Assembly: GCA_964447415.1 (NCBI GenBank)
Contig: CAYUSN010000004.1
Span: forward strand, 1-41,199
Length of the DNA: 41,199 bases
Direction of reading: 5' to 3'
Source: an uncultured Candidatus Saccharibacteria bacterium
Lineage (GTDB): Bacteria; Patescibacteriota; Minisyncoccia; Phycocordibacterales; EsbW-18
The notes under the pieces were generated by a model. The model searched no databases. It was not told where the DNA came from and saw only the letters and a list, made by a program, of their open reading frames with translations. Shown in pieces: positions 38,660 to 41,199 of this stretch. The translations under genes were made by a program, and so were the position numbers. Numbering within the stretch: the first letter of the stretch is position 1; the number at the start of each line of letters is the position of its first letter.

Positions 38660-41199
38660 CTACGAGACAAATTCAAAACGAAACGTTTCGTCGCCTGTGT
38701 CGCCTGCAACCGCGGACACCCCGCTGAGTTTTGTCGCCTTCATAATCTCCTGTTTGAATTCCTCAACGAGCTCTTTGTACTGCTGGTTTGCTGTAATACG
38801 AAGCTTCGGAGAATCAGCGGGTGTGAGTCCTGACTCTTTTCTGAAATCCTGAATCGCACGGATAAGTTCGCGTACGTCGCCTTCTTTCTGCAATGCAGGC
38901 GTAATATTCGTATCAAGAGACACGTCGAGTCCTGAATCTCCGCCGAACACGATTTCTTTCACATTGATTTCGTCCTTCACCAGCGCTTGCAGTGCATCAT
39001 TACCCTTGAGCACCTCGTGCACAGATCCGAGGGAAAGCGTTGCAAGCGGCTGACGCACCTTAATGCCTGCGGCCATACGCGCCTCAAGCGCCTTTGATAC
39101 CACCTCGCGCACCTCTTTCATTTCTTCCAAGATGGTCTCGCCTCCCGAGGCCTTGGCACAAGAGGGCCAGGTCTCAAGGTGCACACTCTCTTGTTCTCCC
39201 CCCGCCGCGATATACAGTTCCTCGGCGAAAAACGGCGTAAACGGCGCTAGCAGTTTTGCAAGTGTTGCGAGCACGTGACGCATCGTGATTAGCGCCCGCA
39301 TCGCGTCTTCTCCGCCGTCACGGAACCGGTCACGGGAGCGCCGGAGATACCACGTGGAGAGGTCGTTGATGAAATCTTTCAGTGCGCGTGTCGGCGTAAA
39401 AATGTCGTACGACTCAAGTCCATCCGTCACCTCTTTTGTCAACGTGTTGAGACGCGTAAGGATCCAACGGTCAAGTACATGTGTGCTTTCCCGTTTTACG
39501 TCCGTTGTGTGCGGCACGTCCTTTGCATATAGCGCGTAAAATGACACGACGTTGCGGAGTATGTTAAACACCTTTTTACTTACTTCGTCCACCGTTTTTT
39601 CGTCGAAATTTTTCGTATCACCCGGCTGGTTGACGGAATACATCCAAAAACGAATCACATCCACGCTGTGTTTTGCCATCGCCTCCCACGGATTAATGAC
39701 ATTACCGATTGATTTACTCATCTTCTTTCCGTGCGCATCGAGAATGTGCCCGAGACAAATAACGTTTTCATATGCGCGTCCGCGGCCCATGAGCGTACCG
39801 ACCGCGTGCAGTGTGTAAAACCAACCGCGCGTCTGATCTATAGCTTCGGAGATGTAGGCGGCAGGATACGCAAGTTTCTGTTTCTGCCAGAATCGTTTTC
39901 CTCCTTCAAACGGATAGTGGTCCTGCGCAAACGGCATGGAACCGGAATCAAACCATACGTCCATCACCTCAGGTGTTCGCTTCATCGGTGTTTTGCATTT
40001 TGGACACGATACCTGCACCTCATCTATGTATGGCTTGTGTAAATCAATATCAAAATCAGCATTATGCGGGAGTGGAACAAATGAAAACTCCAATGTACCT
40101 GCTAATTCTGGTTCAATGGTCGAACGAATTATGTCTGATCGCTTATCATCCGCACCCTCTAAGATTGCCGGGATTGTCTGGAGCGCGATGCCGTGCGTAA
40201 CCACAATAATGTGCTCATTCTGATGTTTTGCATCAATGTCATACAAGAACTGTGCGAGACGACGCTTCACATCCTGAAAACTTTCACCGTTCGGCAACCT
40301 ATCACTGTATCCAAGATGGTGTTCCTTCCTGTAGGCAAAAACATCCTTGTGCGGTTTGCCATCTAAATCACCATACCCAAACTCTGATAAACGCTCGTCA
40401 ACAATAATGGAGCTTGAAGACAGGCCAATTTCTTTTGCCAAAATTTCTGCTGTTTCTCGAGTGCGAACGAATGGGGACGTGTAAATTTTTTGAACACTTT
40501 TATGCGAAAGCATTCTGCCGACACGTGCGACTTGGGTTTTTCCCTTTTCAGTCACATGGTCTGGGGCATCTGCTTTGGCGTTCGCGGTATCGGAAATATT
40601 GTTCTGTGCCTCTCCGTGACGCACGACAATGAACGTATTTCCACGAGAGACTATTTTCTTTTTTAAATCCGCAATAGAGCCGATAACCTCCATGTGTCCG
40701 CAGGAACACTGCCATGCGGGTAGTGGTGTTCCCCAGTACCGGTCGCGAGAAATCGCCCAATCCTTCACCTCACGGAGCCACTCACCGAAGCGTCCGTCAC
40801 GAATATGCTCTGGTACCCAATTAATCTTTTTGTTCTCCCGCATCAATTCATCGCGCAGAGCCGACATACGGATGTACCACGAATCGCGGGCGTAGTAGAT
40901 AAGTGCAGTGTGACACCGCCAGCAATGTGGGTACGTGTGTGTGACTGTTTCCTTTTTCAGCAATAAGTTCCTGCCCGCCAAATCCTTGATGACATCGACC
41001 GCAACGCTTTCATCGCGTACAAATCGTCCTTCAAACATTCCCGTGCCCTTCAAAAAGTTTCCGTCCTCACCAACGAGATGATGTTTTGGCAAACCTACAC
41101 GATTTCCCAATTCAAAGTCCTCTTGTCCGTACATCACTGCCGTGTGCACAATGCCCGTACCGTCCTCCGTTGTGACAAAATCAGCGGCGTACACCTTGT
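38660..41199 (-). CDS. ileS: Isoleucyl-tRNA synthetase (type 2), C-terminal ~845 aa; N-terminus lies beyond the right edge; contains an inserted histidine-phosphatase domain
   Basis: Motifs [67 protein letters not shown], KMSKS ([10 protein letters not shown]), and an anticodon-binding region. The frame is open to base 41199. Confidence 0.95.
   Translation of the reverse strand, partial: [845 protein letters not shown]

Follow-up and report, generated by a model that had tools for sequence, protein, structure and literature searches.

A histidine phosphatase domain nested in the CP3 subdomain of a type-2 isoleucyl-tRNA synthetase from Patescibacteria

Aminoacyl-tRNA synthetases are among the best studied of enzymes, and new catalytic domains nested within them are rare, the editing domains being the classic case. 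The locus described here raises the question of whether a second enzyme can be lodged intact inside the core of such a synthetase and, if so, what it might do there. The window, a 41,199-nucleotide stretch of DNA (contig CAYUSN010000004.1, assembly GCA_964447415.1) from an uncultured Candidatus Saccharibacteria bacterium, carries on its minus strand, at 38660..41199, a partial ileS gene for a type-2 isoleucyl-tRNA synthetase (IleRS). An initial annotation of the window had proposed that extra residues within this gene form an apparently intact histidine phosphatase domain. The questions are whether that domain is real, exactly where it lies, how widely it is shared, and what use a phosphatase might be to a synthetase.

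An intact phosphatase in the CP3 subdomain

The extra segment is an intact branch-1 histidine phosphatase domain, a conclusion on which the Pfam profile, the predicted fold and the catalytic residues all agree. It comprises 188 residues (188-375 of the encoded fragment; 40073..40636, minus strand) and matches His_Phos_1 (PF00300) at E=1.2e-34 within the whole protein and at E=1.3e-35 when taken alone (123.3 bits against a cut-off of 21.7), the match spanning profile positions 2-164 of 194. By sequence, the solved structure nearest to the insert is PhoE/YhfR (1EBB, 1H2E; E=6e-18 over 159 aligned residues). An AlphaFold (AF2) model of the insert has a predicted local distance difference test score (pLDDT) of 95.3 and a predicted template modelling score (pTM) of 0.91, and Foldseek relates this model to many solved members of the superfamily with a probability of 1.00 and template modelling (TM) scores of 0.70-0.77. 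The neighbours at a TM score of about 0.74 include PhoE, the PspA phosphoserine phosphatase, Rv2419c, CobC, the riboflavin-pathway histidine-family phosphatase (HFP) and TIGAR.

The active site appears complete. In fragment numbering, R193-H194-G195, N200, R245, E272 and H335 pair with the PhoE residues R, H, N, R59, E83 and H151. On the minus strand, RHGE (40610..40621) provides the phosphate-binding Arg and the nucleophilic His, present in 287/287 and 286/287 non-gap copies of the domain, and is followed by QNN (40598..40606) with the Asn of the phosphate pocket (262/285 non-gap copies). The second catalytic Arg, invariant in 292/292 non-gap copies, lies in VRTRET (40451..40468, inside [10 protein letters not shown]), and the Glu proton donor in LSEFG (40376..40390), where 270 of 292 copies have Glu and 16 have Asp. 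A conserved GESF motif (40277..40288; Glu in 288/292 copies) precedes VTHGI (40187..40201), which holds the second catalytic His (286/287 copies). Across the roughly 300 domain copies that were aligned, the hexad R-H-N-R-E-H is thus retained almost without exception, and the catalytic residues are at least 90% conserved among the first 120 homologues. For a homologue with 75% identity (P0001), the full-length model reaches a pLDDT of 88 and a pTM of 0.79, with values of 90-96 for the insert and both of its linkers, and this prediction suggests that the insert is attached in a defined rather than a floppy manner.

Within the superfamily, the insert is a compact phosphatase of the PhoE/PspA/CobC type and not a phosphoglycerate mutase proper. 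Subfamily membership was judged by NCBIfam bit scores against each model's own cut-off. The insert scored 86.8 bits against 162.9 for the CobC alpha-ribazole phosphatase (TIGR03162), 81.8 against 225 for dPGM_arch (NF038349), 77.1 against 350 for PspA (NF045917) and 42.6 against 74.5 for SixA (TIGR00249). For pgm_1 (TIGR01258), it scored 43.2 against 81.7, with only positions 3-102 of 245 matched. Assignment to dPGM, CobC, PspA, SixA, GpmB, PmrG, the MutT1 C-terminal domain or the RNase H/acid phosphatase family was rejected, all of these scores being below their cut-offs; for dPGM proper there is also the disparity in size, about 190 residues against a model of about 245 positions.

The host is a canonical type-2 isoleucyl-tRNA synthetase. 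Its open reading frame (ORF) closes with a stop codon at 38660-38662 and is unbroken as far as position 41199, where the window ends and past which its 5' side continues; it encodes the C-terminal 845 residues, some 310 N-terminal residues lying outside the window. In the Pfam search, tRNA-synt_1 (E=2e-57) is divided into two parts by His_Phos_1, and these are followed by the anticodon-binding helical domain Anticodon_1 (residues 576-718, 39044..39472, E=6e-34) and the type-2 C-terminal domain DUF5915 (residues 743-825, 38723..38971, E=1e-17). The part preceding the insert (40637..41197) comprises the end of the CP1 editing domain, with GTGIVHTA near the start of the fragment, then the CWRC knuckle of the CP core, CP2 and the motif [14 protein letters not shown], together with the first half of CP3, whilst the KMSKS signature loop lies at 39710..39724. 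When the whole protein is ranked against NCBIfam, TIGR00392 (ileS) comes first, followed by the type-2 MupA and MupB models. Its 516.8 bits against a cut-off of 621.4 are those of a fragment lacking about 310 N-terminal residues and of a match split by the insert, and both host flanks are colinear on the model (positions 313-496 and 509-852). The best solved relative of the ORF is Priestia megaterium IleRS2 (8C8U, E=1e-151). Full-length homologues carry the JGI name isoleucyl-tRNA synthetase, and their alignment consensus has PGIHH as the counterpart of the HIGH motif, a region that itself falls outside the window.

The point of insertion can be fixed closely. In the alignment with 8C8U, query residue 180 corresponds to chain residue 476 and query residue 378 to chain residue 480, so that about 197 residues stand in place of about 3. 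Relatives without the insert read KSGxxLPKNxKGExDLHKPY across this site and those with it read SGN-[domain]-PLPHNxxYELDLHKPY; because the insert-less relatives align there, the domain can be placed between SG(N) and LP(H/K)N, host sequence restarting at the LPHN junction (40061..40072; LPKN in insert-less relatives). The WGTPLP/[14 protein letters not shown] motif flanks the insert on one side and the DVWFDSG core motif on the other. Query residue 380 or thereabouts corresponds to residue 501 or so of the Candida albicans IleRS, whose CP3 comprises residues 473-534. These alignments place the domain at the tip of CP3, the peripheral subdomain with the zinc knuckle, where it is inserted in frame between the knuckle's first Cys pair (C-S-C, 40700..40708; C-x-x-C in most relatives) and its second (CPKC, 39995..40006).

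Most of the initial annotation stands in the light of these results: the frame is intact and contains every peptide block that had been quoted from it, the phosphatase is nested in the type-2 catalytic core, and it splits the CP3 knuckle, whose Cys pairs lie exactly where they had been placed. The borders given for the domain, 40058-40642, located it correctly and are refined here by 15 and 6 bases. The supposition that this connection normally measures only 10-25 residues was mistaken, since about 35-40 residues separate the Cys pairs in insert-less relatives.

CP3 is a peripheral connective subdomain; its topology varies from one IleRS to another, and in the Thermus thermophilus enzyme it has a zinc motif (PMC7191050). 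No specific function for CP3 was found in the IleRS literature examined (including PMC7191050 and PMC11685878). The first Cys pair is C-S-C here and C-x-x-C in the closest homologues (CAGC in P0001, for example). The CP3 Cys positions are kept in only 60-90% of the family, and zinc binding at the knuckle may not be universal.

Distribution in IleRS and capture by ValRS

The initial annotation had called for a survey of IleRS orthologues, and this showed that the architecture is widespread. The sequences come from NCBI, JGI, ENA and Logan assemblies. PF00300 and PF00133 occur together in 119 of the 120 best homologues of the full fragment, the exception being a C-terminal fragment; these homologues are 51-75% identical, about 1150 residues long, and bear names that include Candidatus Campbellbacteria, Paceibacterota, Taylorbacteria and Patescibacteria group. 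At least 187 distinct 90%-identity protein clusters from independent Patescibacteria assemblies have the insert-bearing architecture, and other clusters are without it. A search of genome contigs with a single protein query gave four loci.

The insert differs from its host in base composition. Its G+C content (GC) is 0.455 and that of its third codon positions (GC3) 0.43 (40073-40636), against 0.51 and 0.56 in both flanks (38663-40066 and 40658-41197); a Paceibacterota homologue (locus L001) shows a smaller dip, with a GC3 of 0.59 in the insert against 0.65-0.69. The dip could stem from weaker selection on codons in a segment that evolves fast, or from past exchange. The lower GC3 could also be read, along with an insert end (...HN) that superficially resembles an intein C-terminus, as the mark of an artefact or a selfish element, whether by chimeric joining, by frameshift in a pair of genes or by mobile insertion in the manner of an intein. 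The probability of this is negligible. A chimeric join is excluded because 187 distinct clusters from the four data sources share the same in-frame architecture; the ORF contains no stops or frameshifts, and the dip in GC3 recurs in L001. Misassembly and frameshift were rejected on the same grounds of an unbroken ORF and a recurrent architecture. As for an intein, there is no Hint match in Pfam, the fold is that of a histidine phosphatase, and the H of the HN aligns with host IleRS2 sequence. The residue after HN is Ala here (Ala, Glu or Tyr in the family) and not Cys, Ser or Thr.

The domain is nevertheless missing from many close relatives. A repeat search with an insert-deleted query, which took away the advantage of insert-bearing proteins in the ranking, returned 111 further relatives, 68 with the insert and 43 without it, at similar identity (53-59%); all 43 show a clean short loop at the site. 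The insert-less set includes isoleucine--tRNA ligases of Candidatus Nomurabacteria and Uhrbacteria, unnamed Kaiserbacteria/Nomurabacteria proteins and a Pacebacteria protein found on many contigs. Since relatives that are equally close keep a clean short loop in place of the phosphatase, the domain is dispensable for aminoacylation. On a rough neighbour-joining tree of 208 insert-deleted sequences, Fitch parsimony requires 11 changes between presence and absence and infers presence at the midpoint root. The distribution is clearly patchy and, so far as such a tree can tell, points to repeated loss or, less likely, repeated gain. The distances among inserts correlate with those among their hosts (r=0.46, a value reached in 0/300 Mantel permutations), and the insert has an evolutionary rate about 2.4 times that of the remaining enzyme. 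These sequence comparisons are consistent with mainly vertical descent and with selection focused on catalysis. Overall, the architecture is mainly vertically inherited in many lineages of the Patescibacteria (Paceibacteria/Parcubacteria) and missing in others.

The gene neighbourhood is shared between the two kinds of ileS. In the window, a RecO-like gene (RecO_N, E=1.5e-8; 38063-38656, minus strand) begins 3 bases downstream of ileS, and insert-less ileS loci share this ileS-recO synteny. Two of these loci (L008 and L010) keep the ileS-recO pair, with a gene for ArgRS upstream and further synthetase genes nearby. At another locus (L002; CAZFNU010000029.1, about 2494-5997, plus strand, 30% GC), whose metagenome-assembled genome also bears the label 'uncultured Candidatus Saccharibacteria bacterium', there is a full IleRS gene; its product has the CP3 phosphatase insert and shares 40% identity with the window protein across 842 residues. 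This ileS has only 7 TGG codons and 19 in-frame TGA codons, those checked standing where Trp is conserved ([29 protein letters not shown]). UGA thus appears to be read there as Trp (code 4) and not as Gly, its meaning in Gracilibacteria and Absconditabacteria.

A search with the insert alone against 1.84 billion representative proteins returned 17,489 matches at E<=1e-3 and 1,294 at E<=1e-10. Every long protein among the best 150 representatives is either an IleRS or a valyl-tRNA synthetase (ValRS). Stand-alone proteins of about 190-205 residues also exist in the insert's subfamily; the contigs that carry such relatives are short and hold no neighbouring synthetase gene, and two of these proteins, like the insert, fall under every characterised NCBIfam subfamily cut-off.

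In ValRS, the domain is present in 6 of the 120 listed proteins of a ValRS search, the query (P0238) counted. Because ValRS relatives about 70% identical in the flanks do without the domain, these insertions look recent and sporadic. They occupy three sites: the homologous CP3 zinc knuckle (P0238, P0270, P0305 and P0217), a position after DTWFSSG...GWP (P0215) and a position after a PQWF motif (P0253 and P0122). The ValRS copies are most similar to each other and to the IleRS inserts. In a small ValRS subgroup (P0314 and P0319), VHG replaces RHG (ITYFVHG...), so that the first Arg is lost, and the CP3 Cys pairs are gone; judging from these residues, the phosphatase copies there may be catalytically altered.

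The domain has also been amplified in tandem. Six IleRS clusters (P0136, P0184, P0191, P0241, P0204 and P0243) have two phosphatase domains at the insert site, and one such two-copy IleRS is encoded on a 1.06-Mb contig. ValRS proteins have one copy, two (P0253) or three to four (P0122). The proteins become correspondingly large, with 1419 residues in the P0184 IleRS, 1468 in the P0241 IleRS, 1538 in the P0253 ValRS and 1161 in the P0122 ValRS fragment. The tandem copies keep the catalytic hexad, save for an Asn to Ala change in copy 3 of P0122 and a Glu to Ala change in copy 1 of P0253.

Histidine phosphatases commonly dimerise, and enzyme-derived domains resembling glutathione S-transferase (GST) serve as assembly modules in eukaryotic synthetases. 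It could therefore be imagined that the role of the insert is mainly structural, holding two IleRS molecules together or bridging IleRS and ValRS, with the tandem copies as intramolecular pseudo-dimers and catalysis secondary or vestigial. Duplication within one chain and occurrence in both IleRS and ValRS would fit such a role. It is improbable, however, given that all six catalytic residues are near-perfectly kept in about 300 copies despite the fast-evolving background, which indicates retained catalysis, and that the first Arg has been lost only in the small ValRS subgroup of P0314 and P0319.

What the phosphatase may do

Catalytic activity is the first step in any functional account. Retention of the catalytic set in essentially all copies, against a drift in the remainder of the domain that outpaces the host by a factor of 2.4, makes an active phosphomonoesterase the most likely identity of the insert. 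It would work through a phospho-histidine intermediate, and IleRS would thereby become a bifunctional enzyme. The phosphatase would be an accessory module on which aminoacylation does not depend.

A functional tie between this module and the synthetase, which the initial annotation had raised as speculation, is, on balance, the probable explanation, as judged from comparative sequence evidence. IleRS and ValRS are the sole fusion partners among the best 150 representatives and have captured the domain repeatedly, and from this we infer that physical linkage to class Ia synthetases is under selection. Captures at different sites, together with tandem amplification, lead the same way, since chance lodging would hardly account for them. 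The recurrence in ValRS in particular argues for coupling of the phosphatase with the synthetase, at least at the level of sequence comparison.

The domain might instead be uncoupled from its host, an ordinary housekeeping phosphatase for small molecules (a sugar phosphate, phosphoserine or a nucleotide) that has come to ride in a permissive loop of an essential, constitutive protein in organisms with tiny genomes. CP3 offers such a loop, being peripheral and variable among IleRS enzymes in both topology and zinc site (PMC7191050), and close relatives have repeatedly come to lack the insert with no other visible change. The domain itself has the look of a soluble metabolic phosphatase: it is acidic to neutral, evolves fast outside its catalytic core, has bona fide stand-alone relatives of about 190-205 residues in its own subfamily, and finds its nearest structures among metabolic enzymes (PhoE, PspA, the riboflavin-pathway HFP, CobC and Rv2419c). 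There is also a precedent in the histidine phosphatase domain of the yeast TFIIIC subunit tau55, which is reported to be apparently uninvolved in RNA polymerase III (Pol III) transcription (PMC10781861). Against this, if any loop would do, it is unexpected that the partners among the best 150 representatives should be only IleRS and ValRS, with the domain at three sites and in several groups of ValRS. Nor is it easy to see how chance lodging could place up to three or four catalytically intact copies in tandem in a single synthetase. An uncoupled phosphatase therefore deserves serious consideration, though it is rather unlikely.

Several observations do weigh against a functional tie to the synthetase, or against particular forms of it. 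The third editing class Ia enzyme, leucyl-tRNA synthetase (LeuRS), does not occur with the domain among the best 150 matches. Many lineages manage without the domain altogether, as its patchy distribution (11 Fitch changes) indicates, and in two insert-less lineages no stand-alone histidine phosphatase lies within 10 kb of ileS, though this neighbourhood tells little either way. The insert reaches the cut-off of no characterised histidine phosphatase subfamily, so that NCBIfam does not fix its substrate class. An RNA-binding signature is unsupported, the insert domains being acidic to neutral; they are in fact mildly acidic, with a median isoelectric point (pI) of 5.9 (7.3 for the domain in the window), unlike typical RNA-binding modules. 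We know of no histidine phosphatase that acts on RNA ends.

If the phosphatase is indeed tied to the synthetase, its substrate would be a phosphorylated species presented there. The lead candidate, put forward quite tentatively, is tRNA with a 2' or 3' phosphate or pyrophosphate on A76, an end that the module would make chargeable again; a second candidate would be a nucleotide by-product. The toxSAS toxins provide a setting for such a reaction, as they pyrophosphorylate tRNA at its 3' CCA end (at A76) in a tRNA-selective manner and so block aminoacylation, and HD-fold small alarmone hydrolases (SAH) undo this modification (10.1101/2021.04.30.441581, PMC11559606). Two clusters of insert-bearing IleRS (P0059, 1365 residues, and P0486, 1107 residues) have an extra C-terminal domain of the HD/HDIG phosphohydrolase type in place of the last 50 or so IleRS residues. 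Matches to HD models are weak, at E=8e-7 for Pfam HD and 24.6 bits for TIGR00277 (cut-off 27.6), and the fusions may be true ones or artefacts of gene calling or assembly; their rarity and the weakness of the matches also count against the proposal. It is the toxSAS/SAH precedent, taken with these HD/HDIG domains, that makes a phosphorylated tRNA 3' end a plausible substrate.

In its most specific form, the proposal is that the insert is a module for tRNA 3'-end repair or toxin resistance, stripping a 2'/3' phosphate or pyrophosphate from A76 of tRNA-Ile, or of tRNA-Val in the ValRS versions. The groups removed would be those left on A76 by toxSAS-type effectors or by nuclease damage, and charging of the tRNA could follow immediately on the same enzyme. 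So specific a role is doubtful.

The phosphates removed might alternatively be on the synthetase itself. Toxin kinases of the HipA type phosphorylate class I synthetases such as GltX and TrpS, and the histidine phosphatase superfamily includes the protein phosphatases SixA, PGAM5 and Sts-1. A phosphatase linked in cis to the catalytic core could in theory protect its host by clearing inhibitory phosphates, for example from the KMSKS loop, and would be dispensable in lineages that might have no kinase; SixA is, moreover, among the weak NCBIfam matches. Yet the SixA score of 42.6 bits is well under the cut-off of 74.5, the closest relatives of the insert are small-molecule phosphatases, and neither a kinase gene nor evidence of a phosphosite was found. 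Self-protection of this kind is very improbable.

Whichever substrate applies, a second and apparently active hydrolase of unrelated chemistry resides inside IleRS across a large part of the Patescibacteria and has been captured independently by ValRS, in up to four copies. If it acts on tRNA ends, on nucleotides or on the synthetase, it would establish that phosphate chemistry and tRNA charging are linked in a new way in organisms whose genomes are minimal; were it to repair tRNA ends, it would amount to a previously unknown layer of cis-acting tRNA quality control in these ultra-small bacteria. If it is uncoupled, it would show, from nature, that an essential enzyme can have a site permissive to insertion, which would be of use for protein engineering and for the correction of annotations. 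The short loop of insert-less relatives is a ready, natural handle for deletion of the domain.

Genomic setting and comparison with known systems

The rest of the window has a mainly housekeeping character. A type IV pilus cluster (26842-34124, minus strand) encodes PilM, PilO, PilB-like and PilT-like T2SSE ATPases and a PilC-like T2SSF protein, and the remaining genes include those for a P-type ATPase, FtsK, RecA, a GatA-type amidase, an NAD-dependent DNA ligase and MsrB. Such a gene content, taken with the names Campbellbacteria and Paceibacterota borne by the closest ileS homologues, fits a chromosome of the Patescibacteria. Four minus-strand ORFs gave no Pfam match at the thresholds used: 15648-17597 (649 residues), 32162-32896 (244 residues), 35804-36283 (159 residues) and 37089-37958 (289 residues), the last of which lies two genes downstream of ileS, just past recO. 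A tRNA-Ser gene (GCT; 35891-35979, plus strand) is the sole Rfam or ARAGORN match in the window.

The initial annotation had suggested that the architecture was without described precedent. As far as the literature goes this holds, since no description of a synthetase with a histidine phosphatase domain was found in open-access papers and preprints, and a 2026 preprint on the domain architectures of 96,219 IleRS sequences contains none of the words phosphatase, Patescibacteria and CPR. The proteins themselves are common in public databases, under generic names: many are 'class I tRNA ligase family protein' at NCBI, and others 'isoleucyl-tRNA synthetase'. The architecture is thus apparently undescribed rather than unseen.

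Both parts of the protein have known relatives. PhoE/YhfR of Geobacillus (Bacillus) stearothermophilus, a broad-specificity phosphatase, is the closest to the insert by sequence, has the same compact size and all of the catalytic equivalents, and superimposes with a TM score of 0.75 and a root-mean-square deviation of 2.6. It is about 29% identical and free-standing, whereas the insert is nested in a loop of a synthetase. On either side of the insert, the host aligns end to end with P. megaterium IleRS2 (8C8U), and it has the type-2 C-terminal domain DUF5915, KMSKS and the CP3 Cys pairs; another comparable enzyme is the T. thermophilus IleRS (1ILE), whose CP3 binds zinc. In contrast to the 188-residue enzyme domain found here, known IleRS2 enzymes have a short CP3 loop.

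Branch-1 phosphatase domains are also joined to nucleic-acid enzymes or factors elsewhere, as in the Rv2228c-type RNase H/acid phosphatase (NF005567, which at 80.8 bits is among the best NCBIfam matches of the insert), the MutT1 protein with its Nudix and histidine phosphatase domains (NF052459) and TFIIIC tau55, which is tied to the transcription of tRNA genes (PMC10781861). These are terminal fusions and none is in a synthetase, unlike the nested insertion described here, and the NCBIfam scores are far under their cut-offs. The SAH hydrolases, which remove pyrophosphate from the tRNA 3' CCA end and so free the A76 hydroxyl (10.1101/2021.04.30.441581), would be analogues of the insert only if the favoured hypothesis of a tRNA substrate is right; they have an unrelated, HD fold and are free-standing enzymes.

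Another IleRS with an added enzyme domain, an N-acetyltransferase, has been curated as NCBIfam NF040702 ('ileS_w_GNAT'). Its extra 190 or so positions lie upstream of the region held in the window, and not in CP3, as the N-terminal flank of the insert matches positions 497-652 of the model and the C-terminal flank begins at 702; its fold and chemistry are also different. It was accordingly rejected as a precedent for the same site, and papers on SbzA (PMC6331615, PMC12945691) were without bearing on the matter.

In a broader sense, the nesting of hydrolytic domains, as in CP1 editing, and the appending of further domains are established themes among synthetases. Second active sites held within the first are an established design in class Ia enzymes, in the form of CP1, and occur elsewhere as INS or editing inserts. 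Like the insert, the CP1 editing domain is a hydrolytic domain nested in the Rossmann-fold catalytic domain (domain maps in PMC7191050 and PMC11685878). CP1, however, occurs in every IleRS, ValRS and LeuRS, where it hydrolyses products that are mis-acylated, whereas the insert differs from it in fold, in chemistry (hydrolysis of a phosphomonoester via phospho-His), in its site in CP3 and in its restriction to particular lineages.

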